From the NCBI GenBank assembly GCA_963741095.1, contig CAVUGN010000005.1, positions 1 through 64,000 on the forward strand: DNA of 64,000 bases. The letters are read 5' to 3'. Each line of letters begins with the position of its first letter. Position 1 is the first letter of the stretch. This stretch comes from an uncultured Candidatus Micrarchaeota archaeon. GTDB taxonomy: Archaea > Micrarchaeota > Micrarchaeia > Micrarchaeales > Micrarchaeaceae. The notes under the pieces were generated by a model. That model saw nothing but the letters and a program-made list of their open reading frames with translations. It ran no database searches and was not told the DNA's origin. The translations under genes and the position numbers were made by a program. Shown here in pieces: positions 2,904-63,066 of this stretch.

Positions 2904-2943
2904 GGAGATACTTATGCTTTGCTTCCAGCTTAGCCAATTGACG
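2904..2943 (-). promoter_or_regulatory. Conserved 40-bp promoter module
   Basis: Minus strand: CGTCAATTGGCT-AAGCTGGAAGCAAAG-CATAAGTATCTCC. Confidence 0.8.
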
Positions 2944-3000
2944 TTCTAGAGCAACAATCCATTCATGCGAAGAGAGTGTTGGAAAATCTAACACAGTTAG

Positions 3001-3351
3001 TCATCCACTCAGATCGGTCCGCATATCCACCTGTTTCGGGACCAATGCGGCGAACACCTCGCCCCTTAGCTTTTCGGGCATGCTGATGCTATTCAGTTGC
3101 TGATCGGTGAGCTTGAACGCGACTGCGGCTTTCACTGCCTCGTTTTCCCTGTTGTTCTCCAGAAGATGCTTCACGCCCTTCAATGCCGCCTTGATTATCT
3201 GCTCTGCGTTCATCCTGTGCGCCGGCGACCTCGCGTCATCCAAAGCGGCATCGAGATCGCCTTTCTTCAGGTGTATCTCTATTCTCTGCATGCCGATGTC
3301 GCTGACTATGACCCTGTGGATATCAAGCCCGGTCATCTTCGTGGTGGGCAT
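3001..3351 (-). CDS. Hypothetical alpha-helical repeat protein
   Basis: 116 aa; EAVKAAVAFKLTDQQL resembles the repeats of 4645-5190. Confidence 0.7.
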   Translation of the reverse strand: MPTTKMTGLDIHRVIVSDIGMQRIEIHLKKGDLDAALDDARSPAHRMNAEQIIKAALKGVKHLLENNRENEAVKAAVAFKLTDQQLNSISMPEKLRGEVFAALVPKQVDMRTDLSG

Positions 3352-3457
3352 TTCAGCACATCATAGAATACGATTCAGAATGTATTTACGCTTTGTGTAA
3401 TCAATCAACGCTTCTAGCTTGTTTCGAAAAGTGTGTTGGAAAATCCAAAACAATCTT

Positions 3458-3715
3458 TCACAAACTGTCGTAAACCTTTTTCCTGTGCCCTATCCTTATA
3501 ACAAGTATCATTCTTTTGTTGAGATCTAAGTTAAGGATGAGTCGGTAATTCCCAACCCTAAGGCTAAAAAGCGGCACTCCCTCCAATCTCTTCAGATAAG
3601 GCAACGGATTTGGTGCGGCCATCTCGAGTCTCTTGACCATCCTGCTGGATGTGGTCTTGTCCAATCTCTTTAGGGTTCGCCTTGCTTCCTCAGATAGAAT
3701 GACTTGATAGGTCAT
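3458..3715 (-). CDS. RelE/ParE family toxin
   Basis: YQVILSEEARRTL...LRVGNYRLI...IGHRKKVY; overlaps the antitoxin stop. Confidence 0.9.
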   Translation of the reverse strand: MTYQVILSEEARRTLKRLDKTTSSRMVKRLEMAAPNPLPYLKRLEGVPLFSLRVGNYRLILNLDLNKRMILVIRIGHRKKVYDSL

Positions 3716-3954
3716 TTGATCCCGAGCTCCTTCTTGACGCTTTCGAGTGTGTGTATCCTTCCTGCCTCTATATCCTTAAGCCCTTTCTTTATGCCTGTTA
3801 TATCCTCCTCTGACAAAGGCTCTTCATCTACGGCCATGTTCGTCAACCTCTCTATCACGGAGTCCAGGGGCTCCCTTTCAAATAGTTTCAGCTTGTCGAG
3901 TCTCTTTCGGGTGACTTTACTTATCTGTATCGTCGTTTGTCCTATAGCTTCCAT
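3712..3954 (-). CDS. Antitoxin with RHH-like N-terminus
   Basis: TTIQISKVTRKRL N-terminus and EPLSEE...DIEAGR C-terminus; upstream of RelE. Confidence 0.85.
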   Translation of the reverse strand: MEAIGQTTIQISKVTRKRLDKLKLFEREPLDSVIERLTNMAVDEEPLSEEDITGIKKGLKDIEAGRIHTLESVKKELGIK

Positions 3955-4036
3955 AGTATATTATAAGGACTTATAGGTATTTATAAGTTTCGGCAGATCC
4001 AGGAAGCACTTGTACTTTGCGAATGTGTTGGAAAAG

Positions 4037-4534
4037 CTAACAGATTACGGATTTAATGTTTCTGGGCAGGAAATACTCCTCCTTGCAATAATTTAGCCTA
4101 GCAGGCAGGCCCACAACCTCAATCGGTTGGTTCTCAACAAGACTTCCGACGAGAGCCTTTCTATGGGTGACGAGCGTGTGCGGTACAGTTGCGGTCACAA
4201 CCGCCATGTGCTCGACGTATATGGAGCTGCCAAGATCAAAAGTCCATGCAACTAAACATCCAAGCCTGGGGCTCTCGATTTTTTGAAGCTTCTTCAGGAC
4301 TGACGAGTACACCGTCCTCGGATTGACGTATTTATCCTTGTTTATCTCTCCCGTGATGAACAATGCCGTGCTTACGCAATTAGGCCCTGTTTTCACCCTT
4401 TCCTGAATCGTGGTCTCCTTGCAAAGCAGTATCTTTTGGAGCGTCTCCTTGCTCAATCCTTCTTCGGCTTTGGGATCTTGCCGCAGCGCTATGCCTTCCG
4501 CACCGGCTGTTTGAGCTTTTTGAGCAAGCGCCAT
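4037..4534 (-). CDS. Hypothetical protein, possible papain/NlpC-P60-like Cys-His enzyme
   Basis: GPNCVSTAL...VEHMAVV; start MALAQK lies downstream of the promoter at 4561. Confidence 0.6.
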   Translation of the reverse strand: MALAQKAQTAGAEGIALRQDPKAEEGLSKETLQKILLCKETTIQERVKTGPNCVSTALFITGEINKDKYVNPRTVYSSVLKKLQKIESPRLGCLVAWTFDLGSSIYVEHMAVVTATVPHTLVTHRKALVGSLVENQPIEVVGLPARLNYCKEEYFLPRNIKSVIC

Positions 4535-4560
4535 CTTATCACAATATAGATTACGGCTTA

Positions 4561-4600
4561 GGAGATACTTATACCTTGTTTCTGGCTTCGTCAATCAACG
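4561..4600 (-). promoter_or_regulatory. Conserved 40-bp promoter module
   Basis: CGTTGATTGACG-AAGCCAGAAACAAGG-TATAAGTATCTCC. Confidence 0.85.
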
Positions 4601-4644
4601 CTCTGAGCTCGTTCCAGAAAGAGTGTTGGAAAAACTAACACTGT

Positions 4645-5190
4645 CTACCCTTTCGATATTGTTGCAGCAGAATGCACCTCTATGTCTGTGAGACCATACT
4701 TCTTTACTATCGATTTCGCAGTGATATCTACCATATCTTCGCGGATGTTACCATCTGCAATTCTTTTTTCAAGCGCCTTGATTACGGCAGAATGCACCTC
4801 TTCTGCTGTGAGTTTGAAGTTCTTCGCTATACTTGTTGCAAGTTCAAAGGAATTTTCCGCAACTTGAGATATAAATCCATTTATTGCAGGTTTGTGTATC
4901 TCTTCGTCTTTTAGACCATACCGCTTTGCTATTTTTACTGCAGATTCTACTGCCACTCCACTACCCTTAAATATGCCGTATTCGTATGGGGCATAACTAA
5001 TAATGTCTTCAAACGCCTTGATTGCAGCCGTGTGTATCTCTTTGTTTGTAAGCATAGACGTTTTCTCGGACAACTCTCTACTCTGGAAGGGTGCCGAGTA
5101 CTTCGGGTCGAAAGCCATTGCGCTAATTAAGCCAGCAACTTCGCTTATAATCGCAGCATGTTTGTTATTATTTACTGTTTGTTGTACCAT
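4645..5190 (-). CDS. Alpha-helical repeat protein
   Basis: Repeated IA(K/R)x(Y/F)xLxxEE(I/V)HxA unit, three to four times. Confidence 0.8.
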   Translation of the reverse strand: MVQQTVNNNKHAAIISEVAGLISAMAFDPKYSAPFQSRELSEKTSMLTNKEIHTAAIKAFEDIISYAPYEYGIFKGSGVAVESAVKIAKRYGLKDEEIHKPAINGFISQVAENSFELATSIAKNFKLTAEEVHSAVIKALEKRIADGNIREDMVDITAKSIVKKYGLTDIEVHSAATISKG

Positions 5191-5224
5191 CCAATCACAT
5201 TATAATACACAACATAGGAGATAT

Positions 5225-5890
5225 TTACGCATTGCTTCGTGATTGGACGTTTGACGTTCCGCGCGTGCATGCCTGCAGGTTCAAGAAGAAGGTGGAAGGC
5301 CGCGACATCTCCTCGAAGCCGAACTCCCCCACAAGTCTTTGCATCTCCGGAGTTATGGCGTAGCAGTAGATCGAAGATGCGCCTTCTGTCGCGCAATCGC
5401 TCCTGATGAGCTTCAGCAATGCGCTGCCAACACCCCTGTTCTTGTATTCGTTGTACCTTTCGCTGACTATCCCGAAGGGATAGAAGTCGGACAGCAGCAC
5501 CACGCGTGCATGCTCCGGAGTTATCTTTTCCAGGTATGCCCCGAGCACGATATCGTTGCGCGCCACTTCCGCGATGCTGGTATAGAATATGATTGCGGAT
5601 CCCGTCCGCGTGTATGTTGCCTTGTCCAAAGCCCCGTAGCTGGCCCGCAGAAGAGCATGATATTCGATGGTCTTGTTCTGCCAGTCAGGTGCCTCGTAGC
5701 CTATCCAATTATCCGTCTCCACTCTCCTGATGGTGGGTCTTTCTGCAACGACGATCCTTAATGTGCCTGCATCGGTCTCAATTGCCTTCGGCTGCTCTTT
5801 TCTCAGAACAAAAGGCGTAGTTATATCAGAAAGGCTGAAATCGCCTCCAGAACCGGCGTTAGCACTTTTCGTCTGCGTTTGTCCCCCCAT
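5225..5890 (-). CDS. GNAT-family acetyltransferase with N-terminal extension
   Basis: YKNRGVGSALL acetyl-CoA motif A; ...FGFEE. Confidence 0.7.
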   Translation of the reverse strand: MGGQTQTKSANAGSGGDFSLSDITTPFVLRKEQPKAIETDAGTLRIVVAERPTIRRVETDNWIGYEAPDWQNKTIEYHALLRASYGALDKATYTRTGSAIIFYTSIAEVARNDIVLGAYLEKITPEHARVVLLSDFYPFGIVSERYNEYKNRGVGSALLKLIRSDCATEGASSIYCYAITPEMQRLVGEFGFEEMSRPSTFFLNLQACTRGTSNVQSRSNA

Positions 5891-7979: not shown

Positions 7980-9038
7980 TCATATCCACTCTTCGATCGC
8001 TGCTCTTGCCTTCTCCAGGCGGTTGAATTCTGCCTTCGTGATTGATTGTATTTCTGGAATCACTGCCGTGTAGCCGATTCTGAGCACTTCTAGGGTATCT
8101 TTTATGCTGTAATCCGTGGCGGCAAAACTCAGCAGCGCTACCATCCTTCCCAGGTAATGCGACGTGATAGAGAGCTTGTCGTCTTCGCTGCCCCTTTTTT
8201 CGAGGCCATAATTCGATACCATGCGTGCAAAATCCACTGCATTGGAGATGTTGCCGCGCTTTATGCAGTCAAATATTATCGGCAATTTCATGCTGTGCAT
8301 GTCCACACCGTCATTAAGGGTCAATCCCCCCACCATGTACTCCTTGATGTAGTGGATAAGATCCTCGTTGGGTACTGCCTTGCCGAACATTGATGCGTTG
8401 ATTAGGTTGCCAACTTGCGGTAGTCTGCTATGGGTCATATAACCCCTAGAATCCCATCCCTTCTCGATTCCAACGAATTGCTTGAAAGGGGGAGTGCCTA
8501 TATGATCTGGAAATGCGGTGCAGTCCGATCCCCAATGTCTCGGAAGGTACCTTGTGCTGCGGAACGCGGAATCGAAGAAGTATGCCAAAGCTTCGGACAA
8601 TGCGCTGCCGAATACCACAACATCCGTCCGATCCATCTTTTTTAGAATTTGCAAGTATTCCTCATAATATCCGATGGCAATTGCTTTCATAAGTTTGTCC
8701 TTATCTTTGCCTGCAATCGAGCCCTTGAGCATGTAAAGGGCGGAGTCGTAGAAGTTTATGTCATTCTGCAAGAGGTGCCCAAACTCGTGTGGGATCGCGA
8801 AAGTGCTGTCGCCGTATATCCGGATATGTCCGCCTATTGCTTGGCCGTACGTTATCAGGCATTTTCCGGCTTTCTTCGGCATGAAAACGACATTCGGCTT
8901 GATGCTCGACAGTTCCTCTCTGCGCATCAGACCCGAGCCTAGACAATCGTAGGTGGCTCTGAGATATGAGGCGGCCTCACGCTTAAGCGTGGGGCTAGGG
9001 TTCGTCTCCATTACCATAATTCTCTCGATTGCTGACAT
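7980..9038 (-). CDS. Zincin-like metallopeptidase
   Basis: PHEFGH with downstream SEALAYFF (gluzincin-type third ligand). Confidence 0.7.
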   Translation of the reverse strand: MSAIERIMVMETNPSPTLKREAASYLRATYDCLGSGLMRREELSSIKPNVVFMPKKAGKCLITYGQAIGGHIRIYGDSTFAIPHEFGHLLQNDINFYDSALYMLKGSIAGKDKDKLMKAIAIGYYEEYLQILKKMDRTDVVVFGSALSEALAYFFDSAFRSTRYLPRHWGSDCTAFPDHIGTPPFKQFVGIEKGWDSRGYMTHSRLPQVGNLINASMFGKAVPNEDLIHYIKEYMVGGLTLNDGVDMHSMKLPIIFDCIKRGNISNAVDFARMVSNYGLEKRGSEDDKLSITSHYLGRMVALLSFAATDYSIKDTLEVLRIGYTAVIPEIQSITKAEFNRLEKARAAIEEWI

Positions 9039-9116
9039 TCAATACGCCGATATCAGGCATTCAGGAAATACTTATGTCTTGCTCTCGGCTTTTATGATTA
9101 ACGTTTGCGGCATTCT

Positions 9117-12492: not shown

Positions 12493-12945
12493 TCATATCC
12501 CGTTTGAGCATCCTTTTGTCATGAAGTTTGATATCAGCGTTGCTGTGAGGGTTGCCGCGGCCAGGATTTCGTAGGTAAGCGCTCCGGCAGTTACGGTCCC
12601 GATCGCGTTGAGATAGCCATGAGGCACGAACGGCATGATCTCTGCCGAAGAGTATCCCCCAATCTTAATCGCTATTTCCGTCATCCGCTTGCCCAACGAC
12701 ATCGCGGCGGGCGTGCCCATGACAAGAACCGCCTCCGTTGCAGCCACAGCTAGGCCGTATGTGAGCCCCATCGCGATCATGTTTTTGCTGCTGAATTTGA
12801 AACCCCTGGGCCCGTAAGCGCCCAATCCTGCGCCGTCTCTCCTGATCATGCTGTGGGGCGATCCAGAGTCCTTGCCTCCGGCAAGCGTGCCTTTGCCCTC
12901 TTCGCCCGCCTTTTCAGCCACCGAACGCTCACACTTCTCAGTCAT
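12493..12945 (-). CDS. Hypothetical protein with two hydrophobic segments
   Basis: Start MTEKCERS, downstream of a TATA-like element at ~12993. Confidence 0.6.
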   Translation of the reverse strand: MTEKCERSVAEKAGEEGKGTLAGGKDSGSPHSMIRRDGAGLGAYGPRGFKFSSKNMIAMGLTYGLAVAATEAVLVMGTPAAMSLGKRMTEIAIKIGGYSSAEIMPFVPHGYLNAIGTVTAGALTYEILAAATLTATLISNFMTKGCSNGI

Positions 12946-13011
12946 GACAAACACTAATAATGAACATCGAATCAGAAGTTTATCCAATGCATGAGATACT
13001 TATACCTTGTT

Positions 13012-14058
13012 TTACTGAGTCCCCTGCCTTTTTGCGGCCTTCTCCAGCAGTTCCCGCATCTCCTTTGTTTTGGCGTAGTCGATTGCCTTCAACCCTTTGT
13101 TATTTTTTATACCCACCTTCGCGCCACCATTTACCAGTGTCTTTATGATTGCGTTATGCTTCTCCATCGCAGCCGCAAGCAGCGCCGTGTTGCCATCCTT
13201 ATCCTGAAAGTTAGGGTTGGCTCCATAGTCAATCAACTTCTTTACAATCTCGTTCGAACCACCCCACGAGGCGTACATCAGCGGGGTGTTGCCGCTGGCG
13301 TTGTTCCTTATATTTGTATCCGCGCCGTAGTTCAACAGCACTACGACCGCATCGCCTGCTCCGGCAGACGATGCCCTAATCAGCGCGGTGTCGCCGTTCT
13401 CGTCCCGCTCATCCACATTGGCGCCGTGTGTCATCAGCGTGTCCGCGATAAGGTAGTGGTTGTAGAAGGCCGCCCACATCAAAGCAGTATCGCCCTTGTC
13501 TGACTGCACGTTCACATCGCCACCGGCACGTATCAGCATCTCAACAATCTCAGTGTTGCCTTGCGCAGAAGCTAACATGATCGCGTTCGAGCCTATGCGG
13601 CTTACCTCATTGGGGCTTGCCCCGTAGTCCAGCAGCACTTTGACGACCTCCTTGCAATCATTTTTCGAGGCCCACATGAGGGCAGTCCAGCCGGGTTCTT
13701 CCTTTGTTTCGAGCTGAGCGCCGCTTTTCAGAAGCAGGTCGACAACCCCTTTGTAGCCAGCTGCCGATGCGGCAATCAGTGCCGTCCTGCCCGTGTCATC
13801 ACACATGTTGACGTCCACGCCGTAGGATATGAGCGTTCCGATCCTGTCCAGGTCAACCGCGCCTATCTTGCCCGATTCTGCAACCAATTCGCGCCCCAAC
13901 GAATCCAGCATTGCCTTGTCGAAAACGGGGGTTCCCAGATCCTTGATCCTTTTGCCAATATCGTTGCAGGGATTGGATTCGGCCTGCCGGACGAACGCCT
14001 TTATCGCATCCGCTCTGTCAGTCGTCATCTTTCCGCTCTTGTTTGCGCTATTTTCCAT
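13012..14058 (-). CDS. Ankyrin repeat protein
   Basis: Multiple GxTAL/TPL..A...G repeats; leader GKMTTDRADAIKAFVRQ. Confidence 0.95.
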   Translation of the reverse strand: MENSANKSGKMTTDRADAIKAFVRQAESNPCNDIGKRIKDLGTPVFDKAMLDSLGRELVAESGKIGAVDLDRIGTLISYGVDVNMCDDTGRTALIAASAAGYKGVVDLLLKSGAQLETKEEPGWTALMWASKNDCKEVVKVLLDYGASPNEVSRIGSNAIMLASAQGNTEIVEMLIRAGGDVNVQSDKGDTALMWAAFYNHYLIADTLMTHGANVDERDENGDTALIRASSAGAGDAVVVLLNYGADTNIRNNASGNTPLMYASWGGSNEIVKKLIDYGANPNFQDKDGNTALLAAAMEKHNAIIKTLVNGGAKVGIKNNKGLKAIDYAKTKEMRELLEKAAKRQGTQ

Positions 14059-15429
14059 CCTCCTCAAACCTAGCGGCCCGCTTTATCTGTATCTTTATAT
14101 TCTTGTTGTCCGTGCAATCCATGGCTGTCTTGCCTTCGTCGTTCTTGCAGTCTAGGTCCACACGCCAGCTCAGCAGTGTCTCAACCGCGTCCCCGTGATT
14201 GTTCGCGGCTGCACGCATCAGTGCAGTGCAGCCGTCCTTGCCTCTGAAGTTTCCGTCGGCGCCAGACCGCATCAACAACTCCACGATGATCGCGTTGCCC
14301 TTCTCCGCAGCCACGATAAGCGGTGTTTTGCCTTCTACACTCTTGTGGTTCAAATCGACTGCATGGGTTTTCAGCAGCATCTCTGCAATCTCGAAGCTGT
14401 CGACCTCGGCTGCGAACATCAGCGCGGTCTCACCATGGTTGATCTGGATGTCCGGTTTGGCTCCTCTATCGATTAGAATCTTGGCAATCTCGCTGCCACC
14501 AGCTATTGCAGCGCAGATCAGCGCAGTGCAGCCTTGATCGTCCTGCAGGTTCACGTCTGCACCGTTGTCCAGCATCAGCTTGACAACCCCTTTGTAGCCA
14601 GCTGCCGATGCGGCAATCAGTGCCGTCCTGCCCGTGTCATCACACATGTTGACGTCCACGCCGTAGGATATGAGCGTTCCGATCCTGTCCAGGTCAACCG
14701 CGCCTATCTTGCCCGATTCTGCAACCAATTCGCGCCCCAACGAATCCAGCATTGCCTTGTCGAAAACGGGGGTTCCCAGATCCTTGATCCTTTTGCCAAT
14801 ATCGTTGCAGGGATTGGATTCGGCCTGCCGGACGAACGCCTTTATCGCATCCGCTCTGTCAGTCGTCATCTTTCCGCTCTTGTTTGCGCTATTTTCCATC
14901 CTCCTCAAACCTAGCGGCCCGCTTTATCTGTATCTTTATATTCTTGTTGTCCGTGCAATCCATGGCTGTCTTGCCTTCGTCGTTCTTGCAGTCTAGGTCC
15001 ACACGCCAGCTCAGCAGTGTCTCAACCGCGTCCCCGTGATTGTTCGCGGCTGCACGCATCAGTGCAGTGCAGCCGTCCTTGCCTCTGAAGTTTCCGTCGG
15101 CGCCAGACCGCATCAACAACTCCACGATGATCGCGTTGCCCTTCTCCGCAGCCACGATAAGCGGTGTTTTGCCTTCTACACTCTTGTGGTTCAAATCGAC
15201 TGCATGGGTTTTCAGCAGCATCTCTGCAATCTCGAAGCTGTCGACCTCGGCTGCGAACATCAGCGCGGTCTCACCATGGTTGATCTGGATGTCCGGTTTG
15301 GCTCCTCTATCGATTAGAATCTTGGCAATCTCGCTGCCACCAGCTATTGCAGCGCAGATCAGCGCAGTGCAGCCTTGATCGTCCTGCAGGTTCACGTCTG
15401 CACCGTTGTCCAGCATCAGCTTGACAACC
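13741..15429. repeat. 841-bp tandem duplication
   Basis: 13741-14588 matches 14582-15429; GACAACC at 13741, 14582 and 15423. Confidence 0.95.
14048..14899 (-). CDS. Chimeric ankyrin repeat protein
   Basis: N-half identical to the 13012 gene, C-half identical to the 14889 gene. Confidence 0.85.
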   Translation of the reverse strand: MENSANKSGKMTTDRADAIKAFVRQAESNPCNDIGKRIKDLGTPVFDKAMLDSLGRELVAESGKIGAVDLDRIGTLISYGVDVNMCDDTGRTALIAASAAGYKGVVKLMLDNGADVNLQDDQGCTALICAAIAGGSEIAKILIDRGAKPDIQINHGETALMFAAEVDSFEIAEMLLKTHAVDLNHKSVEGKTPLIVAAEKGNAIIVELLMRSGADGNFRGKDGCTALMRAAANNHGDAVETLLSWRVDLDCKNDEGKTAMDCTDNKNIKIQIKRAARFEEDGK

Positions 15430-15830
15430 TCGGTGTATTTCCGCAACGAAGCCATCGTCAGCGCCTTGATCCCGCGCTCGTTCTGCACGTTCAAGTCCGC
15501 GCCGCTCTTCAGTAGCAGTTCGGCGATCTCCAGATTGCCGCTGACGCAAGCGTAGATCAGCGAGGTGTTTCCCTCCGGATCCCTCGCGTTCAGATCCGCC
15601 CCGTTGCTTATCAGCTCCTTCACCCTGAAGAGGTTTGGATGCTCCAGCTTCGATTCCTCGATTATCATTGCCCCGTATTTTAATGCATGATCTTTGTCCA
15701 CTGTGCCCAGTCGGGCCGCTTCCCTGTTTATCGCATCGCCTGGCGCCGAGTCGACCTGTCGGATGAACGCCCTGATCGCGTCCGCCTTGTCGATCGTCAT
15801 TCTGCCGTTCTGGTTCGAATTGATCTCCAT
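14889..15830 (-). CDS. Ankyrin repeat protein
   Basis: Ankyrin repeats; leader GRMTIDKADAIRAFIRQ. Confidence 0.95.
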   Translation of the reverse strand: MEINSNQNGRMTIDKADAIRAFIRQVDSAPGDAINREAARLGTVDKDHALKYGAMIIEESKLEHPNLFRVKELISNGADLNARDPEGNTSLIYACVSGNLEIAELLLKSGADLNVQNERGIKALTMASLRKYTEVVKLMLDNGADVNLQDDQGCTALICAAIAGGSEIAKILIDRGAKPDIQINHGETALMFAAEVDSFEIAEMLLKTHAVDLNHKSVEGKTPLIVAAEKGNAIIVELLMRSGADGNFRGKDGCTALMRAAANNHGDAVETLLSWRVDLDCKNDEGKTAMDCTDNKNIKIQIKRAARFEEDGK

Positions 15831-15831
15831 C

Positions 15832-16783: not shown

Positions 16784-16823
16784 GGAGATATTTATGCCCT
16801 GTTTTTGAGTTCGTCTATTGACG
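16784..16823 (-). promoter_or_regulatory. Conserved 40-bp promoter module (ankyrin operon)
   Basis: CGTCAATAGACG-AACTCAAAAACAGGG-CATAAATATCTCC. Confidence 0.85.
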
Positions 16824-16881: not shown

Positions 16882-17229
16882 TCAGGTAGGGTTCATCTGG
16901 TTCCTTTCCAGGTTCAGGATCTTGTAATCAAAAAAGAGTGTCTTCTCGCTCGCTATCTTGAACTTCTTTGACGGCCCTTCGCCGTACTGGATGAGGAAGT
17001 CGCTGGATTGCCCGCTGACCAAGCTTCCGTTCGCCATTACCTTTGGGTCCACGTAGAACTGCTTGTCCATCCTCACCGCATAGACCTTCTCGTCGGTCTT
17101 GCAGTCTATGGCCAGGTACCTGGCAGCCTGCTCGGGCAAAAACAATCGGTCCTTATCGGACATCCGCGGCGCGAATGTCGGGGATATGTCGACATTGCTG
17201 ACATTGACCGCTTTGTCCTTCGTCACCAT
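16882..17229 (-). CDS. Hypothetical protein
   Basis: 115 aa; CATAAATATCTCC box upstream. Confidence 0.7.
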   Translation of the reverse strand: MVTKDKAVNVSNVDISPTFAPRMSDKDRLFLPEQAARYLAIDCKTDEKVYAVRMDKQFYVDPKVMANGSLVSGQSSDFLIQYGEGPSKKFKIASEKTLFFDYKILNLERNQMNPT

Positions 17230-17314
17230 TGGATCACGTTAGGAACAATTCATTCGAGGAGATATTTATGCCTTGCTCTCTGCTTTTTTCGGTCAAAGGA
17301 TCAGGGAATTCCAG

Positions 17315-17575
17315 TTACTTCGGCTTGTCGGCCTTGGACGGCAGCATGTACTGCTTTATCTTCCCGTAGAGCACGAAGGTCACGCCGTTGTTCCTCTGTG
17401 CCACATCCTTGAGGTGGTTCTTGTAGAACTCGAGCGCCTCCCTGTTGCCCTTCTCTATCTCGCGCTTGTACACGCCGCACACGCTGCAGGTGTGCGGTTT
17501 CTTCTCCTCGGAGGTTTTTCTGTCGAATATCTTGATTATCACTTTCTTCGAATCCGGGTCGAGTATGCGCGCCAT
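17315..17575 (-). CDS. Small hypothetical protein (HxCxxC)
   Basis: 86 aa; motif promoter at 17661-17700. Confidence 0.6.
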   Translation of the reverse strand: MARILDPDSKKVIIKIFDRKTSEEKKPHTCSVCGVYKREIEKGNREALEFYKNHLKDVAQRNNGVTFVLYGKIKQYMLPSKADKPK

Positions 17576-17794
17576 ATCAACAGCTTTTCATCTTGCAATA
17601 AACATCCTGTTTGCCTTTCAGCCGTCTCAATCGCTCCTGTGCAGTATAAGGTACGCTTCATGAGATACTTATAGCTTCTATCCTAGTCCGTCAAGTGTCG
17701 ATAAATCCGGCAGGATCGATGTGCTCTCCTGACCGCTCCACGCAAAGCTATTTATGAATAAACAGCCCTTTCCTCTCAAGCGAGTGATGGTTTC

Positions 17795-18501: not shown

Positions 18502-18541
18502 CGTCAATAGGCGAAGTTGAGGATAGCTTATAAGTATCTCC
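18502..18541 (+). promoter_or_regulatory. Conserved 40-bp promoter module
   Basis: CGTCAATAGGCG-AAGTTGAGGATAGCT-TATAAGTATCTCC. Confidence 0.85.
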
Positions 18542-18641
18542 TGGACCGCTATCAATAGTGCGATAGAATAACAGCGTCAGAAAGCGCAGCAACAAATACT
18601 GACAGGTGCTCTGACAGAACCGATCAAGGGCAAACGATGAG

Positions 18642-22580: not shown

Positions 22581-22620
22581 GGAGATATTTATAGCTTGTT
22601 CGGCACATCGTCTATTGACG
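22581..22620 (-). promoter_or_regulatory. Conserved 40-bp promoter module
   Basis: CGTCAATAGACG-ATGTGCCGAACAAGC-TATAAATATCTCC. Confidence 0.85.
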
Positions 22621-23466: not shown

Positions 23467-23647
23467 GCTGATCGCCCTACACTTCCATCCAGAAATATTT
23501 TTGCCCATCAGGTATTTATAGCCTACTCTGGCGTACGTCGTTTGCGTACGTCACCGATTCGTTTGTCTGACGCGTTTTTGACGAAAATCCCTACAGATAT
23601 GCATAAATATCTCGAAATTTTAAGGGTATGACTGTTGATGTGATTCT

Positions 23648-34133: not shown

Positions 34134-35212
34134 CTTTTACGTTTATAACTGCAAGAATTAGCAGATTTTATCTTGCTTTTGCCTAAAAGGTTGGATATCG
34201 CATTCGACCTGGATTTACAAAGACACGGGATTGACAGGTCTAGCTGCTTCTCTCGCCTGTTCTATGCGAAGCAGTCTGCCCATACTCTCTATATCTTTGA
34301 CAGCGATCTCAAGGCTCTCCAATGCCTCGACCTTCAATCCGTAGTCCTTGACAATTTTGAGAAGAATTGGCGACGCGTCCGCATTGCCGTGCAGTCTCTC
34401 TGCGGCCCGCCCTGCAGCGGTGTTGATCTGTTCCTTGCTCAGCCCCTTCGACATTCTCGTGGCCTCCTTGAATGCACCGAAAGCCAGACATTCCGTGACT
34501 GCCAGCATCCTGTCTTCAGTTTTTGTCAGCAAGCGCTCCAGCTCTTTTGCCTCTTTCCGGTAAATAGCAAGGTTACTGCCGCTGACATAATATGCGAGCA
34601 TCTTTGCCGCATTGGACATCACTTTTTCGGCGCCGAGATTGTGTTCGCTAGCTATGTTAAACAGGCATCGGTAATCGTATAGCCCTACATTTTTTCCGGA
34701 ATTGATTTCGTCATCCATCATGATGAGCTTTGTCGCGTATGCCTTCTCGGCGGCTGAGATCTCCTGCTCTCTGCTGAGGTACAGTTTGGCTACATCCAAA
34801 GCATGCAGAAGATACGATAACGGAGTGATTCGACGGTTGTCGCCAGGTTCCAACGTGCTCAGATCCTGGTTATAAACTTTCAAAGCGATCGCTTGCTTCT
34901 CCTCGGTTGTGAGACTGCCCCCGAGAATCTTGGAGTCGTTAAGCATAATCCCACCTCCCCTAATGCACGTTTCGAATTTCTCTAGCAGTTCCGCATGAAC
35001 CGAATTAGCTACCTGCGCATTGCCCTTCGAACCATCCGAGCCGGTTTTTTGCTGCATCATCATATCACTTAAACGCGATTAAGAGGTGAGCAAAAGAGAT
35101 ATTTAAGTGTCGTGTCTGGCTTCGACAATCGACGATTTCTTAAGAGCTTCTTAAAGATCACACCATATCTTACCATTAGATAATTTAAGGACAAAATGTC
35201 GCCGAGTCCACT
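34123..35212. mobile_element. Single-gene micro-island at the tRNA-Ala 3' end
   Basis: CGCCGAGTCCACT at 34123-34135 and 35200-35212. Confidence 0.65.
34215..35063 (-). CDS. Hypothetical helical-repeat protein
   Basis: 282 aa; GLSKEQINTAA and IVKDYGL resemble the 4645 repeats. Confidence 0.8.
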   Translation of the reverse strand: MMMQQKTGSDGSKGNAQVANSVHAELLEKFETCIRGGGIMLNDSKILGGSLTTEEKQAIALKVYNQDLSTLEPGDNRRITPLSYLLHALDVAKLYLSREQEISAAEKAYATKLIMMDDEINSGKNVGLYDYRCLFNIASEHNLGAEKVMSNAAKMLAYYVSGSNLAIYRKEAKELERLLTKTEDRMLAVTECLAFGAFKEATRMSKGLSKEQINTAAGRAAERLHGNADASPILLKIVKDYGLKVEALESLEIAVKDIESMGRLLRIEQAREAARPVNPVSL

Positions 35213-35271
35213 CCTGCTCCCTTTATGAAGTCGTCAATTGGCTAATCCGGAAGCAAGCCTTAAATATCTTC
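35095..35271. promoter_or_regulatory. Divergent pair of 40-bp promoter modules
   Basis: Minus 35095-35134 CGTCGATTGTCG-N15-CTTAAATATCTC; plus 35232-35271 CGTCAATTGGCT-N15-CTTAAATATCTTC. Confidence 0.8.
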
Positions 35272-38277: not shown

Positions 38278-38421
38278 CTGCTCCCGTCATAAGTATGGCG
38301 GTCATGAGATATTTATGCGTCGTGTCGGGCTTCGGCAATCGTCGTTAATGATATGGGAAAAGGCATGGCTGGCGCTGGAGCGTTGCAAAAGAAAAAAGAA
38401 GAAAGGAAGTAAGGGAAGCCC

Positions 38422-45078: not shown

Positions 45079-45480
45079 GTCGCCCCCCTTTCTCGCATGC
45101 GCATGTCGCCCCCTCAGGCCGCGCACGCTTGAAACAAACTCACGGCTGGACTGAAACTTTCGATTGCCCCAGCCGTCTTCAATTCTGTTTAGTAGGGTTA
45201 GGATACTTAAATTTTGTGTTCAGGTTTTTTCATATCAGTACGGGTGACGTATGCTGTAGAAGGGATTTTAATAATTAGCCATCCATATAGTTGATGGTTA
45301 ATCTAGTGCTCGACATAAGGGCACGGAGTCCAACCATCCGAATCCTGCCTGGTTCATCTGTCTTGGTGAAATGACAATTTAATCCTTGCCCCCTGAACGC
45401 ATCGAACGGCGCATTCCGGCGATTGACGGGCGGATAAAAAACCATAAATATCTCTTAAAGCTTCAACAGTCTAGAGGGAT

Positions 45481-52769: not shown

Positions 52770-54182
52770 ATGGCAGAAACACCAGATGTGATACTAAACA
52801 CATATAAACGAGTCAGCAACGAGTATCCTTCTTTCATTGCGCTGAAGAGGATAAACGCCAAATACTACCTGTATAGCCAAACCACAAGATACGATAAAAA
52901 AGAAAAAAAGCAGAAAACAGTCTCGAAATACCTGGGTAGGATAACTGCCGAAGGCGTCTTTATAAAAAAATCAAGGACCTCTGAAAAAGACGATTTGGAA
53001 ATCGCAAAGGCGGTGATAGAGGCGCATGGCGGAAAGGTTGTTCTTCCTGAAACGGCTGGCAACAACGTTCAGGTTGCGGCAAAAAACTTTGTCTTGGATG
53101 AAATTGACAATCGGATATTGACTGTTATGAGCATGAACGCCAGGGCAAGCGCTGCTTTCATAGGAGCGCATGTGGCGACTAAACGAAGCGTTGTTGAGAG
53201 TAGGATAAAAAAACTGGAGAAAGAATATGAAATAAAGTATGTGGCCGAAATAAACACAGAAAAGCTTGGTTACTCTAGATTCCTAGCTTTTAGTAAATTT
53301 CTTGGAAAAATACCAATGATTGATACTATAAAAACTGCAATCGAAACAATACCCAATGTACAATTGGTCGCAACGCTTAAAGGAAAATATGACCTACTTG
53401 TTTACATTCTTGCAAAGAATAACGAGGAATTGTCCATCATTCTAACTAATATAGAGCAAGGCCTATCTACGTACAAAATGGAGTGGTACAGCAGTTATCT
53501 TCATGAAACTTACAACTTTGTACCCGTACGAGATGAATTTCTTGAACTTGTAAAAGGAGATCTCAAGCAAAGGGAGTATAATCTTCTGAGAGAATTCAAT
53601 AATAATGGCAATAAAGAATTCGCTAAGATCGACAAGAGATATGCTCAGGAGCATGGGAGGTCATCCTATGCTTATTATGGCCTCATAAATAACGGTTTGT
53701 TAAAGCGCATTACGATAAACATGTGCACAACTCCAATTAAGTATGTTGGAGTGATATATGCTTCTTTCTTAAACAGAGATAAGTTTGATAAAAATAGAGA
53801 GAAATTATTAAAGAACATGATTGAAGAGGTTAAATCACCTGCAACAAAATATATTTTAGTTGGAGATGTAGGCATGCCACGCGGGGTTATACTCTTTGCC
53901 CCAGTTTTCTTGGAGGGAGACCTGGAAAGAGACCAAGAAGAGTTGGAGAGGTTGGAATTGGGCGTTGCATTAGAAACATATATTGTATCCAAGGTAATAG
54001 TCGGCTCTTTTTGCTTTAGAAAATTTGATAATGGACACTCGCGCCAGTACGATATACTGGTTGAAAAATACGGGATTCCGAAGAGGCCATATCTGAATTA
54101 CCATGATACAGGAAGGATGAAAAAAGAAAGCCAGAGAAGGGACATAAGAGGTCTAAAACTGAATGACGCAGAAGAAGTATGA
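52770..54182 (+). CDS. Large Lrp/AsnC-like regulator
   Basis: LDEIDNRIL..NAR..RIKKLE, GKYDL; second degenerate HTH/RAM unit. Confidence 0.85.
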   Translation: MAETPDVILNTYKRVSNEYPSFIALKRINAKYYLYSQTTRYDKKEKKQKTVSKYLGRITAEGVFIKKSRTSEKDDLEIAKAVIEAHGGKVVLPETAGNNVQVAAKNFVLDEIDNRILTVMSMNARASAAFIGAHVATKRSVVESRIKKLEKEYEIKYVAEINTEKLGYSRFLAFSKFLGKIPMIDTIKTAIETIPNVQLVATLKGKYDLLVYILAKNNEELSIILTNIEQGLSTYKMEWYSSYLHETYNFVPVRDEFLELVKGDLKQREYNLLREFNNNGNKEFAKIDKRYAQEHGRSSYAYYGLINNGLLKRITINMCTTPIKYVGVIYASFLNRDKFDKNREKLLKNMIEEVKSPATKYILVGDVGMPRGVILFAPVFLEGDLERDQEELERLELGVALETYIVSKVIVGSFCFRKFDNGHSRQYDILVEKYGIPKRPYLNYHDTGRMKKESQRRDIRGLKLNDAEEV

Positions 54183-58342: not shown

Positions 58343-58356
58343 TTAACGTGATCTGA

Positions 58357-58847: not shown

Positions 58848-60269
58848 ATGGATGGTGTACCTAAGAATGTGGTAGCAACATTCAGTAAGCTAAGGAAAGA
58901 ATATTCGTTTTATACCACACTGAAGAGGATAAACGACAAATATTACTTATACCACCAATCCACCATATGGCTGAAAAACGCTAAGAAAACGAAGACAGTT
59001 TCGGAGTATCTCGGCAGGATAAGAGATGATGGTGCGTTCATAAAGAAGATGCATCTGGCAAAAAGCAACCTTGTGGATGCGGAATCTTTGATAACTGCGC
59101 ATGGCGGTGAGGTAATATGGCATGGCGATACCGACAAAGTTGCAAAACCACAAACGGAAAGACATGACTTAGCGTTTACCGAGGTGGAGAACAGGCTTCT
59201 GACTACTCTCAGTATGAACGCAAGAGCCAGCTTGGCGTTTGTGGGTCGGCAGATTGGTTTAACCCCTTCTATAACTTATAATCACGTGAAGCAATTGGAA
59301 AAGAAGTGCGGGATAAGGTACATTGCAGAGATTAACCCAGAGAAGTTAGGCTACCTCAGATTTTTTGTGATGGTAAAGTTTCGAGACAGGATACCAAACG
59401 AACTGGAACTCAAGGCCGTAATCAGCAAGAGCCCGAACGTTCAACTTGCCATGCTGACGAAAGGGAAATACGACCTTATGATTTACGTGCTAGCTACAAG
59501 TAATCTTGACATAATGAGAGTGGTCATAGACATGCGGATGGGACTTGTGGACTATCCATCTGAGTGGTACATAGTCAATTTTTATGAGCATTTCAACTTT
59601 GTGCCGTTGAGGGATGAATTCATAGACGTCCTGAAGGCAAACCTCCTAAATCGAGAGTATTCCGTTTTGAAAGAGCTGAATCAAAGTGGGAACAAAGATT
59701 TTGTTGACATAGATCGAAAATATGGCTTCGATGAGGGTAGATCATCTTACACTTTTTACAGGCTCAAAGAAAAGGGGATAATCGATAGAGTGACGGTGAC
59801 TTTGAGCAATACTGTTGTTAAGTACGTTGGGGTGATATTTTTGAACATCATAGACCGGAAGAAATTCGGGAAAAACAGAGAAAAACTTCTGTCATACACT
59901 ATAAGAGAAAAAGACGCTCCGACGATGAATTATGTGCTTGCTGGGGATGACGGAAACCCGGACGGCATACTTTACTTCGTACCTGTGCTGAATGAAGGTG
60001 ATCTCGAAAGGGAAGCTGAGGGTATGGAAAAGCTGGATTTGGGTGCTAAATTTGATACGGCAATAGTATTGAATACACTGTTGGGTTCATTTTGTTATAG
60101 GAAATTCGATTATGTGTACTCAAAGCAACATATGCGACTTGTCGAGGATTATGGATTGCCGCAAAAAGATCAAAAAAACTATGAAGACACTGGAAGAAAG
60201 TCCTGTCACATCGCAACTGGCAAAAGACGCATCGGCATAAGAGGAGAAGAAATCAGAATAGATAACTAA
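58848..60269 (+). CDS. Large Lrp/AsnC-like regulator (paralog of 52770)
   Basis: Colinear motifs SMNARAS, GKYDL, FNFVPLRDEF. Confidence 0.85.
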   Translation: MDGVPKNVVATFSKLRKEYSFYTTLKRINDKYYLYHQSTIWLKNAKKTKTVSEYLGRIRDDGAFIKKMHLAKSNLVDAESLITAHGGEVIWHGDTDKVAKPQTERHDLAFTEVENRLLTTLSMNARASLAFVGRQIGLTPSITYNHVKQLEKKCGIRYIAEINPEKLGYLRFFVMVKFRDRIPNELELKAVISKSPNVQLAMLTKGKYDLMIYVLATSNLDIMRVVIDMRMGLVDYPSEWYIVNFYEHFNFVPLRDEFIDVLKANLLNREYSVLKELNQSGNKDFVDIDRKYGFDEGRSSYTFYRLKEKGIIDRVTVTLSNTVVKYVGVIFLNIIDRKKFGKNREKLLSYTIREKDAPTMNYVLAGDDGNPDGILYFVPVLNEGDLEREAEGMEKLDLGAKFDTAIVLNTLLGSFCYRKFDYVYSKQHMRLVEDYGLPQKDQKNYEDTGRKSCHIATGKRRIGIRGEEIRIDN

Positions 60270-60476: not shown

Positions 60477-60601
60477 AGTCTCACTGTTCAAACATCTCTG
60501 AGAAGACTTAAAAAGTTTGTGTTTTAAGGACAGAGTTGCTGTTTGGCAGCGCTTTCGCGCTGCAGGAATAGTGCTGATGTAGGTTAAACTAAATAAAAGA
60601 A

Positions 60602-61393
60602 TTAACCTATCAGCAATCCTTCTATCCTTACCTGGTAGCCGTCCTTTATCTTGTTCATGAAGTTCACCAGGCCGCTGTGCCTCCATTGGAGCATGCACCT
60701 CCTCGGAAGGAACCAATATCTCATGCCTATCTTCAGGTCCATCCTTGAGTCGCGGATTATCCCTTCATATGCTTCCGCTATGTAGTAGCCGATGTCCTTG
60801 TAGCCCTGCGCCCTTGGCTGCAACGGACCTGTGACGCACCAGACTATCACTCCCGTCTTGTAGTCGGCTTCCATCACAACGCCGCAGTGCGTTATCGGGC
60901 AGCCGCATGACATGCCCAACGGCCTTCCAATCATTATGTCTCCCTTCTTTATCCCCATCTTTTCAGTAAGGGCAGGGTTGTGCGGAAGTATCGTCTCCCT
61001 CGGGCCCGGCTCACCCGGGAATGTCTCAAGAACAAAGTCGAACTCACGTGATAGAGTGTCCTTCCAGTTCTTGCTGTCAGTGCCTATCGCAGCAGACGCG
61101 CAGCCTGCGCATCCCGCTGTCGCAACCGTAGCCTCGTTGACCGGCCTTCCTATGACATCGGTCCTAGGCTGGCCATAAGCTGTCTGGGTCATTCTCTGCT
61201 GCGGAGCTGCGCTCGCGACCTTAGGCGCAGACGCACTGTTCCTGCCCAGGTTCGTGCACCTCTTCATCTCGTCCGCATTGCTTGCGGCCGCTTCTGCCAG
61301 ATCGCTGCACGACTTGTATCCGCATGCGCCGCAATCAAGCTTGGGCAGCTGTTCCAGTATCTTATCGCTCTCTTTTGTTGTCTTTTTTGCCAT
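60602..61393 (-). CDS. (Fe-S)-binding protein, copy 2
   Basis: CxxCxxxxC FeS domain; third gene of the operon. Confidence 0.92.
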   Translation of the reverse strand: MAKKTTKESDKILEQLPKLDCGACGYKSCSDLAEAAASNADEMKRCTNLGRNSASAPKVASAAPQQRMTQTAYGQPRTDVIGRPVNEATVATAGCAGCASAAIGTDSKNWKDTLSREFDFVLETFPGEPGPRETILPHNPALTEKMGIKKGDIMIGRPLGMSCGCPITHCGVVMEADYKTGVIVWCVTGPLQPRAQGYKDIGYYIAEAYEGIIRDSRMDLKIGMRYWFLPRRCMLQWRHSGLVNFMNKIKDGYQVRIEGLLIG

Positions 61394-61402
61394 TCGATCA
61401 CT

Positions 61403-62104
61403 TCATTCTCCTTGATAGAATATGTCGCTGTTGAGCGGCCTCACAACACCGAAGTGCTGCTTCCAGCCTATCTCCTTCTTGCCCACGCATATGGTGCATG
61501 TTCCTACCGGCGGGTTGCCCCTCAAGAAGAGCGGGAACTTGATGTCATTCGACTTCTCTATCTTGTTCACCAGCGGCTCTATGCCTATGCCGTACAAGGC
61601 GTTAGTCTCGAAGACGTGCGAATCCTTCGCAGCGTCCATTATCCTTGCCCTGAAGACCTCTCTTTCTGCCTGCGATATCATGTCTATCTTTGTTACCACG
61701 ACCATGTCCGCGAGCGAGAGCATCGGACCCACCTTGTTCGGCAGGTTCGCTCCGCTTGTCGCTTCCAACACGACCATGCCCAAAGATGATTCCACATAAG
61801 GCGAGCATCTCAGGCACAGCCCAGCCGTTTCTATGAAAAGCATCTCTGCGCCCTCCTTTGCCGCCCATTCTATCGCGTCCCCTATGACCATCACGTTGCA
61901 GTGATCGGGGCAAAGTTCACCAGAGTAGACCTTCTTCGTGGGTATGTTGAACTCCTTCGCGAATATCTCGTCCTCATCGGCGTACTGCACGTCGATCTTG
62001 ACGTATGCCATCTTCGTGCCCTTCTCTGCAAACTTCTTGACTATCCTTCTCAACACGGTCGTCTTGCCGGTTGTGGGCGGACCCGCGCATATAACCATTT
62101 TCAT
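61403..62104 (-). CDS. HypB/UreG-like GTP-binding protein
   Basis: GPPTTGKT, LCPDHC, ETAGLC, TKID. Confidence 0.9.
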   Translation of the reverse strand: MKMVICAGPPTTGKTTVLRRIVKKFAEKGTKMAYVKIDVQYADEDEIFAKEFNIPTKKVYSGELCPDHCNVMVIGDAIEWAAKEGAEMLFIETAGLCLRCSPYVESSLGMVVLEATSGANLPNKVGPMLSLADMVVVTKIDMISQAEREVFRARIMDAAKDSHVFETNALYGIGIEPLVNKIEKSNDIKFPLFLRGNPPVGTCTICVGKKEIGWKQHFGVVRPLNSDIFYQGE

Positions 62105-62115
62105 CTTATCACCAA

Positions 62116-62913
62116 TCAAATATACCCTAAGGCTTCAAGCCTTTCCTCGATCATGTGCTTCTTTATCGTCTCTCCGTTCCTGATCCTGTCACGGAAGTGC
62201 GATATGACGTCGTCGAGCTTCCTCAGCTCCTCTGCGACCTGCTTCTCCTCGGCTTCCGGCATTATCAGCTTCTGCATTGCGCCGTTCTGCATGACTATCC
62301 TGTAATCGGACAGCAGCGCAATCCTCGGATCATGCGTGACGAAGATGAATATCTTCTTATAGTTCTTGAGCAGCTGCAGCGCCTTCGTCCTGTTTATGCC
62401 GGCGTTCTCTATCTCGTCAAGCAGTATTATCGGGGAATTGCCTATGATCACGGCATCCGCGATCAGCAAGGCTCTAGTCTGCCCCCCAGACAGCTCGGTC
62501 ATGGAGTTGTCCATGTCCAGCGGCTCTCCTGTTAGCTGGTTGGCGAACTCCACAGTTTCCTTGACAACCTCCTTGCTGTCGGATCTTCTTATCTTGGCGT
62601 GTATCTCCAGGAACTTCTTCACTGGAAGGTCTGAAAGGAAGTTTGTGTGCTGCGATATCAACGCCATCGGGTTCTTGTATGGGTCAGAACGCAGCTCTTC
62701 CGGAGGTATCGCTCCGTTGATCAATATCTTTCTCTTCGAAGGCGTGTTCTGGTTCGCGAAGAGCTCTATGTCGTTTATGAAGGTAGTCTTTCCGCAGCCG
62801 GTGGGGCCGACTATGCTCACTATGTCGCCCATCTTCATGTTCACCTCTGTTATGGGCTCCTTTTTCCCGTCCTTTCCGGTACCCCCCATTATCGTGAGTT
62901 TTTTTATCTCCAT
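62116..62913 (-). CDS. ABC-type ATPase (no TM partner in the operon)
   Basis: GPTGCGKT, LSGGQ, LLDE, VTHD; start MEIKK. Confidence 0.92.
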   Translation of the reverse strand: MEIKKLTIMGGTGKDGKKEPITEVNMKMGDIVSIVGPTGCGKTTFINDIELFANQNTPSKRKILINGAIPPEELRSDPYKNPMALISQHTNFLSDLPVKKFLEIHAKIRRSDSKEVVKETVEFANQLTGEPLDMDNSMTELSGGQTRALLIADAVIIGNSPIILLDEIENAGINRTKALQLLKNYKKIFIFVTHDPRIALLSDYRIVMQNGAMQKLIMPEAEEKQVAEELRKLDDVISHFRDRIRNGETIKKHMIEERLEALGYI

Positions 62914-63066
62914 TCCATAGCACCTTTTCCCATTATGTATGTAGTTTAATGTTATAACATTAAGATATAAATAGGTTTGTCTTGCGGCTTGTGGGATACG
63001 TTGGAAAACGTAGATGGACGGCTGCCATAAATATTTGGCAAGCGTAAATGAATCTAGGCGTACTGC

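Follow-up and report, generated by a model that had tools for sequence, protein, structure and literature searches.

A rigidly spaced dyad upstream of the TATA box marks a predicted regulon of ankyrin and uncharacterised genes in a Micrarchaeota archaeon

The first 64,000 nucleotides of contig C5 of a Micrarchaeota metagenome-assembled genome (MAG; G000) carry repeated copies of a compound promoter module, in which a 14-bp dyad precedes the TATA box at a rigid distance. This stretch (G000:C5:1-64000; the window) represents 5.9% of the source assembly, which comprises 1,078,454 bp on 11 contigs and is 94% complete. Sequence comparisons suggest that the module probably contains the operator of a single dimeric transcription factor, more likely an activator, acting at about 30-40 promoters. 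That one regulator and one regulon are involved is likely, and the odds that the predicted factor is an activator are only slightly better than even. An earlier note on the window had described an imperfect palindrome, a spacer of 15 bp and a TATA element in front of a dispersed set of genes. The described layout was present at all 11 sites listed there, and the refined dyad was found at the fixed offset with at most two mismatches at ten of them, the site at 9064 containing the left half only.

To measure spacing, the position of the dyad was scored at 80 offsets (15, 16 and 78 others) relative to 558 TATA-like sites genome-wide; the 15 bp to YATAA of the earlier description correspond to 16 bp when counted to the 8-mer ATAARTAT. 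A strict dyad (CGTC-N4-GACG, at most one mismatch in eight positions) occurred 18 times at offset 16, three times at offset 15 and zero to two times at each of the other offsets. Because symmetric T-to-A variants such as CGAC...GTCG were seen, the pattern was relaxed to CGWC-N4-GWCG. With at most one mismatch, this dyad was present 24 times at offset 16 and four times at offset 15, compared to 48 times at all 78 other offsets together (at most five at any one). The dyad-TATA geometry is far beyond chance, and the fixed spacing claimed for the window holds for the whole genome. Nearly all sites are located at one upstream offset, and dyads downstream of the TATA box were not seen.

In the window, the 12-mer CGTCAATTGACG occurred nine times with up to two mismatches (2.85 +/- 1.78 in shuffled sequences; 1 of 100 shuffles reached nine), and the 13-mer TATA element YATAARTATCTCC was found 22 times at the same stringency (3.48 +/- 1.93 in shuffled sequences; 0 of 100 reached 22). 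There was no excess of the 12-mer genome-wide, where 30 copies with up to two mismatches compare with 38-50 in five Markov simulations. Nineteen of these 30 copies are intergenic, and 17 of the 19 are followed by a TATA box at offset 15 or 16. Strong sites (at most one mismatch, offsets 15-17) number 29 in G000; all are intergenic and eight belong to the window. A looser scan (strict dyad, at most two mismatches) gave 45 sites, of which 37 are intergenic and 12 lie in the window. Among intergenic TATA sites, the module is enriched in the window (11/21 compared to 24/319 elsewhere; odds ratio 7, p = 3e-5), in line with the proposal of a dispersed gene set marked by one dyad at one distance. At the 26 strong sites whose downstream gene was examined, the start codon follows 30-130 nt downstream. 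These counts are based on simple gene calls of our own (1130 genes, 89% coding) and an equally simple operon rule of our own (same strand, gaps of less than 60 nt).

Alignment of promoters separated the generic from the specific parts of the module. K-mers enriched upstream of genes in G000 include TAAATAT, ATAAATA and TATAAAT, and 335 promoters aligned on their best TATA match share AA at -5/-4 and T-ATAAATAT-(C)T; farther upstream no conservation is seen. YATAARTAT (ATAAATAT or ATAAGTAT) and the preceding CAAG are therefore the ordinary TATA box and TFB recognition element (BRE) of this genome, and the description of the TATA element as atypical had to be abandoned. In 24 aligned modules, three parts are specific: the 14-bp dyad T-CGWC-N4-GWCG-A, whose centre varies; an AA(G) flank, found only on the TATA side of the dyad; and a C-T-C-(C) tail directly 3' of the TATA box. 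Conservation occurs in blocks, as N4 and most of the spacer vary; among the window copies the spacer is mildly conserved (AAGCC..A.CAAG). Dyad and tail are associated with each other: out of 375 intergenic TATA-like sites, 17 have both, 15 the dyad only, 13 a CTCH tail only and 330 neither (odds ratio 29), and the corresponding p = 4e-13 is overstated, since related promoters are not independent. The median distance from the TATA box to the ATG is about 39 nt, and a GTGAT word is located just before the ATG.

Table 1. Copies and variants of the promoter module in the window. Offsets are counted from the dyad to the 8-mer ATAARTAT.
Position	Strand	Element	Downstream gene and remarks
2904..2943	-	dyad CGTCAATTGGCT, 16 bp, ATAAGTAT+CTCC; 2 mismatches	orphan gene 2234-2872, no Pfam family
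4561..4600	-	module CGTTGATTGACG; 1 mismatch, offset 16	orphan gene 4037-4534, no Pfam family
5217..5256	-	module variant CGTCAAACGTCC, TATA GTAAATAT+CTCC	orphan gene 4645-5190, no Pfam family above cut-off
9064..9103	-	left half-dyad only, CGTTAATCATAA	gene 7980-9017, HEFGH motif
12992..13004	-	extended TATA TATAAGTATCTCA, no dyad	gene 12493-12921
16784..16823	-	perfect dyad CGTCAATAGACG	heads four-gene ankyrin operon 13012-16755, Ank Pfam matches
17258..17270	-	extended TATA CATAAATATCTCC, no dyad	orphan gene 16882-17229
17661..17700	-	module CGACACTTGACG	small basic protein gene 17315-17575; module kept in sister-species orthologue (89% identity)
18502..18541	+	module CGTCAATAGGCG	112 nt before gene 18642-19292
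22581..22620	-	perfect dyad CGTCAATAGACG	NTase-like gene 21688-22557
23575..23614	+	half-dyad TTGACG, 19 bp from ATAAATAT+CTCG	GFO/IDH/MocA oxidoreductase gene 23648-24661
35095..35134	-	module CGTCGATTGTCG	orphan gene 34215-35060, no Pfam family above cut-off; member of divergent pair
35232..35271	+	module CGTCAATTGGCT	orphan gene 35289-35873, no Pfam family; divergent-pair partner with its own dyad
38305..38344	-	module CGACGATTGCCG	Nudix gene 37609-38277, NUDIX Pfam match
45417..45455	+	module CGGCGATTGACG, offset 15	inositol-monophosphatase-family gene 45481-46485, Pfam match
62999..63038	+	weak module, ACGT-N6-ACGT dyad CGTTGGAAAACG; 2 mismatches, offset 16, no CTCC	ankyrin gene 63067-64068, Ank Pfam matches

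Some of the variant sites reported earlier were reclassified (Table 1). The site at 63009, described as a variant with a 5-bp spacer, contains the dyad CGTTGGAAAACG at the normal 16-bp offset from a TATA box at 63027. The variant at 45417 was confirmed as one bp shorter (offset 15), and three others did not hold up as modules: the dyad at ~3381 is degenerate and only 9 bp away from the TATA box, ~23573 is a half-dyad at 19 bp, and 17258 lacks a dyad. As stated earlier, the module is absent in front of rpoH and the helicase; the scan listed no module before the RNA polymerase operon or the helicase, and the region upstream of rpoH was read directly and contains none. The window carries this operon (rpoH-B''-B'-A'-A'') and two tRNA genes and is as a whole chromosomal, not an inserted element. 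A search with RpoB' returned MAGs of Candidatus Micrarchaeota and Micrarchaeaceae (the nearest 96% identical, the next 78%), which agrees with the earlier assignment to a DPANN cell.

The first genes behind 44 module or module-like sites, six of which are weak or variant, were scanned against Pfam. Fifteen had a family above the curated cut-off; seven of these are ankyrin proteins and the others belong to NUDIX, the inositol monophosphatase family, GFO/IDH/MocA, PQ-loop, AAA_5, PGDYG, pentapeptide and HMG-CoA reductase. The Nudix, inositol monophosphatase and ankyrin identities proposed from the sequence were thereby confirmed. The 29 genes without a family compare with 5/20 behind randomly chosen, module-free promoters with a good TATA box (Fisher p = 0.003), in agreement with the claimed enrichment of orphan genes. 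A hand tally for the 29 strong sites gave 26 examined first genes, 11 with a family and six of them ankyrin. A simple hydropathy scan detected neither a hydrophobic N-terminus nor a membrane segment in most module products. For the 21688-22557 product, the call as nucleotidyltransferase (NTase)-like received support from its predicted fold, which is weak: the model has a pLDDT of 81.6, and the best PDB matches are all NTases at E 1.4e-3 and TM 0.2-0.48. With respect to the NTase motif G[GS]...[DE]x[DE], this protein has IEIT where distant family members have IDID or IDLD after GGS. The 7980-9017 product gave a weak zinc-protease lead in the ESM Atlas.

G000 contains 27 ankyrin genes in 14 transcription units, and the dyad (offset 16, at most two mismatches) heads nine units with 21 of the 27 genes. 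Sites with and without dyad number 9 and 5 for the ankyrin units and 23 and 338 for the other 361 intergenic TATA sites, which substantiates the postulated link to ankyrin genes. A local hidden Markov model search revealed a stretch of ~55 conserved aa (..DG[KR]MT..R.DA.K.F.R..) at the N-terminus of 33 G000 proteins. These include most ankyrin proteins and at least eight proteins with other C-terminal parts, among them the product of 18642-19292, which has the N-terminal domain common to the ankyrin family and no ankyrin repeats. The stretch is encoded in the window at 13012-16755, 18642-19292 and 63067-64068 and in 30 further G000 genes. In a six-frame search it gave 34 matches in G000 and none in 60 other genomes of the family including that of the sister species G001, and the N-terminal-domain/ankyrin family thus appears private to the G000 species. 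Ank_2 gave 59 matches in G000 and none in G001, a comparison to be read with caution because G001 is 84% complete and in 140 contigs. In five other genomes (G018, G031, G032, G055 and G057) 8-15 Ank_2 matches each coincide with zero matches to the dyad pattern. The 18642-19292 protein fell into its own cluster only among 5.8 billion proteins, in a search limited by word matching and length.

Such a gene family raises the question of common descent, i.e. of a promoter cassette copied together with genes or as a small mobile unit that does not confer common regulation today. The promoters of ankyrin units are indeed clearly homologous beyond the module (e.g. C5 16779/C5 167654 and C4 74660/C9 63075), and the mild spacer conservation in the window copies points in the same direction. 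However, the module genes outside the ankyrin group have no paralogues within G000 and share no detectable similarity with each other, and conservation is confined to the half-sites, flank, TATA box and tail. Flanking repeats were absent from the sequences read. Nor was there a whole-length likeness independent of promoters, as expected of miniature inverted-repeat transposable elements (MITEs): only blocks are conserved and every strong site is intergenic. Together with the same-offset dyads in front of orthologues in other genera, whose spacers are unrelated, this makes descent alone a very improbable explanation.

Pattern matches were counted in 31 relatives for dyad plus TATA box (at most one mismatch) and in 61 family genomes for the exact W-pattern. 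The former search gave 19 matches in G000 (reversed-pattern control 1), seven in G001 (control 0) and zero to one in each of the others, and the latter 13 in G000 and three in G001 (control 0 in both). The sister species G001 belongs to the same genus, and its stretches are ~70-80% identical to window DNA where matched. It contains 18 TATCTCY sites, eight of them with a dyad at offset 16 (at most two mismatches) and one cut by a contig end. The module precedes the G001 orthologues of 17315-17575, 7980-9017, C6:33682 and C11:97916 (89%, 59%, 79% and 30% protein identity). In the C11:97916 pair, dyad plus flank and TATA box plus tail are identical, while the intervening spacer differs. Upstream of the 7980-9017 orthologue, CGTTGATCGACT at the same offset has both halves with two mismatches. 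The orthologue of 4037-4534 (36% identity) lies behind an extended TATA box, with the dyad region beyond the contig end, and a full module precedes a GFO/IDH/MocA gene in G001.

Outside the genus, the dyad stands at offset 15 or 16 before a Nudix gene of 170-180 aa in nine genomes of four other genera (G005, G044, G040, G061, G011, G049, G070, G066 and, with one mismatch, G045), while neither the spacers nor N4 are related. Two further Nudix loci are a distant paralogue without dyad in G042 and a locus without upstream sequence; the window Nudix 37609-38277 found no relative in the related-locus search. In G041 (genus g38), dyad, TATA box and CTCC precede the 21688-22557 orthologue (45% identity); in G062 only the extended TATA box does so. 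Because the dyad is kept before the Nudix and 21688-22557 orthologues in other genera, the operator appears to be old in the family, with few targets, and to have expanded in the G000 genus. As judged from these alignments, the dyad has been kept at its rigid distance by selection across species and genera. The operator would anciently have stood before the Nudix gene and would have spread in the G000 genus to fast-evolving uncharacterised genes; in the G000 species it would have come to head most units of the 34-member N-terminal-domain family, which are mostly ankyrin-fused. Two homologues of 17315-17575 from other genera have related elements in displaced positions: in G042 (L274), a perfect CGTCAGGAGACG is located 23 bp from the TATA box, and in G062 (L271) CGTC-N3-GACG lies far upstream and a TATATATATCTCCT box is also present.

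Several observations weigh against the proposed regulon. Outside the genus, 28 exact W-pattern matches in 59 genomes exceed the 17 control matches only modestly, and chance may account for roughly half of the single sites in other genera. (The unpublished genome G050, one of the 61 family genomes, accounts for two of the 28 pattern and one of the 17 control matches, and no individual claim depends on it.) In the cultured Micrarchaeum strain A_DKE the pattern is not in excess (0 exact matches; four versus six in the control with one mismatch), and this strain is therefore not an obvious test bed. As the ankyrin promoters are paralogous, the nine units are not independent. A search for the regulator found none: the dyad is not present within 160 nt upstream of any of 18 inspected helix-turn-helix (HTH)-type genes, and the phyletic profiles of five regulator candidates did not match the distribution of the motif. 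Finally, module promoters have better TATA boxes than others (median score 13.1 bits versus 10.2 bits, p = 9e-4) and ordinary BREs. Such near-consensus boxes are at odds with an activator, because activator-dependent promoters are expected to have weak core elements.

The last point favors a different use of the same operator and regulon. A repressor or dual-function factor might silence strong core promoters and be released by a signal, as near-consensus TATA boxes with normal BREs need no help in recruiting TBP. In that case the CTCC tail by the TATA box could be a second contact through which the bound factor interferes with TFB. The dyad, however, overlaps neither BRE, TATA box nor the predicted start site, and no second peak suggestive of looping was seen at other offsets from the 558 TATA-like sites. 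Moreover, the rigid single offset fits a contact with the initiation complex, and so does the separate dyad at each of two divergent promoters (window 35095/35232, C11 97795/97878 and C6 33554/33644). A repressor is therefore unlikely. An activator is preferred because the dyad lies wholly upstream of BRE and TATA box, at a single rigid distance and with its own copy for each divergent promoter; the preference is only slight because the TATA boxes are better than average and the BREs normal. The earlier note had likened the factor to archaeal activators such as Ptr2 and TFB-RF1, and the upstream position fits these examples, while near-consensus TATA boxes do not fit simple recruitment.

According to the activator model, a dimeric sequence-specific protein would bind to the dyad. 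If transcription starts ~30 nt downstream of the first base of the TATA box, as in the usual archaeal geometry, the dyad centre would be near -52, and the bound factor might touch TBP or TFB and thereby activate. As a conjecture, the CTCC tail could serve as another contact, or it could be contacted by TFB downstream of the TATA box, rendering these promoters dependent on the factor.

The earlier note had also considered an alternative TBP or TFB. G000 (94% complete) has one TFB gene, with both TFIIB-repeat matches in one open frame, and an alternative TFB is therefore not supported. TBP is encoded by two unlinked single-repeat genes, G000:C4:23488-23817 (+) and G000:C9:95813-96199 (-), of 109 and 128 aa. 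These genes might favor a promoter class that is read without a separate regulator by a combination of basal factors, e.g. a half-size TBP dimer, with CTCC and dyad as extended contacts. The extended TATA boxes without dyad at 17258, 12992 and in G062 would be compatible with this idea, and in other systems TFB contacts DNA downstream of the TATA box, where the CTCC tail is located. Against it stand the single TFB gene and the distribution of the half-size TBPs. Out of 18 family genomes searched, 17 have the pair, among them genomes without the module, and single-repeat TBP genes occur order-wide with only few two-repeat frames (G011, G023), whereas the dyad regulon is large only in the G000 genus. 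The half-TBP pair thus appears to be a general trait and not specific to the regulon. To our knowledge, no TBP/TFB footprint extends to a 14-bp dyad whose centre lies about 25 bp before the TATA box. A promoter class defined by basal factors is accordingly a very improbable alternative. A literature search on split single-repeat TBP genes retrieved nothing.

Candidates for the predicted dimeric factor are few. The recognisable DNA-binding proteins of G000 comprise a Csa3-like, an XRE-type and a PadR-like protein, two small winged-helix proteins, two membrane-anchored winged-helix proteins and about ten Lrp/AsnC-like proteins; RHH_1 matches are absent from G000, and its TrmB Pfam matches are all below the cut-off. 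The Lrp/AsnC-like paralogues are 440-500 aa long with an internal AsnC-type HTH, one of them also having a RAM-like domain. Two copies are located in the window at 52770-54182 (+) and 58869-60269 (+), the other paralogues on C5, C10 and C11. These genes lie behind AT-rich upstream regions, the window copies within a GC-poor stretch at 52-60 kb, and no link of the paralogues to the dyad was found.

G000:C5:167757-169331 (-) is a single-copy gene. It codes for a protein with an ArsR-type winged helix at the N-terminus, a single membrane segment and a large external part that contains DUF4382 and many N-x-S/T sequons. The gene is positioned directly upstream of the module (C5 167670) that heads an ankyrin operon, and shorter relatives directly follow the dyad-Nudix gene in genus g6. 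The protein may be a membrane-tethered regulator of the module and is a weak candidate; its N-terminus is present in 43 of 61 genomes irrespective of the motif and absent from G001. C1:79208-79594 (54/61 genomes) and C9:21388-21801 (57/61 genomes, 99% identical in G001) are neither excluded nor supported as regulators because they are family-wide. In G062 the homologue of the latter is divergent to a gene that reads as Hsp20-like from its sequence, and C9:21388-21801 may be a heat-shock regulator. Further candidate DNA-binding proteins are C5:125930-126217 and C2:140133-140561, the latter with a cytoplasmic N-terminus.

Four other candidates were rejected. The Csa3-like protein C6:3589-4185, with CARF domain and winged HTH, occurs in only 3/61 family genomes and not in G001. 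A self-regulated factor encoded by 17315-17575 was discarded since homologues exist in 18/61 genomes and in 0/3 of the dyad-bearing genus g11, and the 21688-22557 product is found in only 5/61 genomes. In the Nudix protein, considered as an NrtR-like regulator, the NUDIX match covers residues ~10-124 of 170-180 aa, and the ~50 remaining residues were judged too short for a C-terminal winged helix.

A transcription factor operator that lies upstream of BRE/TATA and defines a regulon is already known in Archaea. In PMC4706686, TrmBL1 is described as activating when bound upstream of BRE/TATA and as repressing when bound downstream. The Thermococcales glycolytic motif of TrmBL1/Tgr (TATCAC-N5-GTGATA) resembles our module as a palindromic operator that defines a dispersed regulon, its position relative to BRE/TATA deciding the outcome (PMC4706686). 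In contrast to TrmBL1/Tgr, the module has the dyad CGWC-N4-GWCG at one upstream offset and ankyrin or uncharacterised targets instead of sugar metabolism, and G000 lacks a full TrmB-family protein (best match 23.4 bits, below the cut-off). Ptr2, an Lrp-family protein of Methanocaldococcus jannaschii, helps to recruit TBP and TFB-RF1 of Pyrococcus furiosus helps TFB binding; the sites of both are upstream of BRE/TATA like the dyad (PMC4706686). The module differs from them by its occurrence at about 30 promoters with strong TATA boxes. Cases of the Ptr2/TFB-RF1 type involve one or few promoters with weak core elements.

Titles and beginnings of abstracts retrieved by literature searches contained nothing on the motif, on a Micrarchaeota ankyrin family or on a palindrome-TATA promoter in DPANN archaea, and we know of no regulon described for the latter. 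The module sequence, its rigid geometry, the target set and the occurrence in DPANN archaea appear new. The module provides a concrete cis-element, whose geometry is unusually clean and whose targets are defined, and is an example of an old Nudix-linked operator that may have been recruited by a lineage-specific gene expansion. With only a handful of candidate DNA-binding proteins, identifying the regulator by binding assays would take little effort, and the target list indicates which uncharacterised proteins to localise first.

The targets are mostly ankyrin and fast-evolving uncharacterised proteins, i.e. genes one would suspect in host dependence. Large ankyrin-repeat families occur in bacterial symbionts and intracellular pathogens, and G000 likewise combines a small genome of a host-dependent organism with a large lineage-specific family (27 genes in 1.08 Mb). 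Unlike the bacterial proteins, the ankyrin proteins of G000 belong to an archaeon and are not linked to a secretion signal or system, and any delivery to a host is purely conjectural. The possible host-contact or effector regulon suggested earlier would fit the gene content. A regulator of an ancient Nudix target, which may be connected with isoprenoid precursor metabolism, might after co-option in the genus switch on the arsenal of 34 mostly ankyrin-repeat proteins together with fast-evolving NTase-like and zincin-like enzymes upon host contact; we judge this programme to be quite unlikely. Within it, the shared N-terminal domain could conjecturally be a targeting or transfer tag, with products acting in or on the host cell.

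A weak lead connects the regulon to isoprenoid metabolism. An amino-acid-kinase-family gene, possibly an isopentenyl phosphate kinase, is located directly upstream of the dyad-Nudix gene in genera g5 and g11 (L159 in G005; L165/L166 in G049 and G011). LytB/IspH lies behind a dyad in G054 (L194), and the HMG-CoA reductase gene G000:C8:15554-16798 behind a dyad with two mismatches.

The leaders of module genes have features of their own. The GTGAT word is found 5-10 nt before the start codon of many module genes (e.g. 4537-4545 and 5193-5201) and may be a Shine-Dalgarno-like element or lie at the predicted start site of very short leaders. In several genes coding for ankyrin or N-terminal-domain proteins, the distance from the TATA box to the start codon is 70-130 nt, compared to ~38 nt in other module genes. 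Such long leaders are present at 18530-18642 in the window and at C5 167560-167670, C9 63106-63234 and C5 96490-96561 of G000. At C5 167670, the interval from the module TATA box to the start codon contains a short open frame of ~22 codons.

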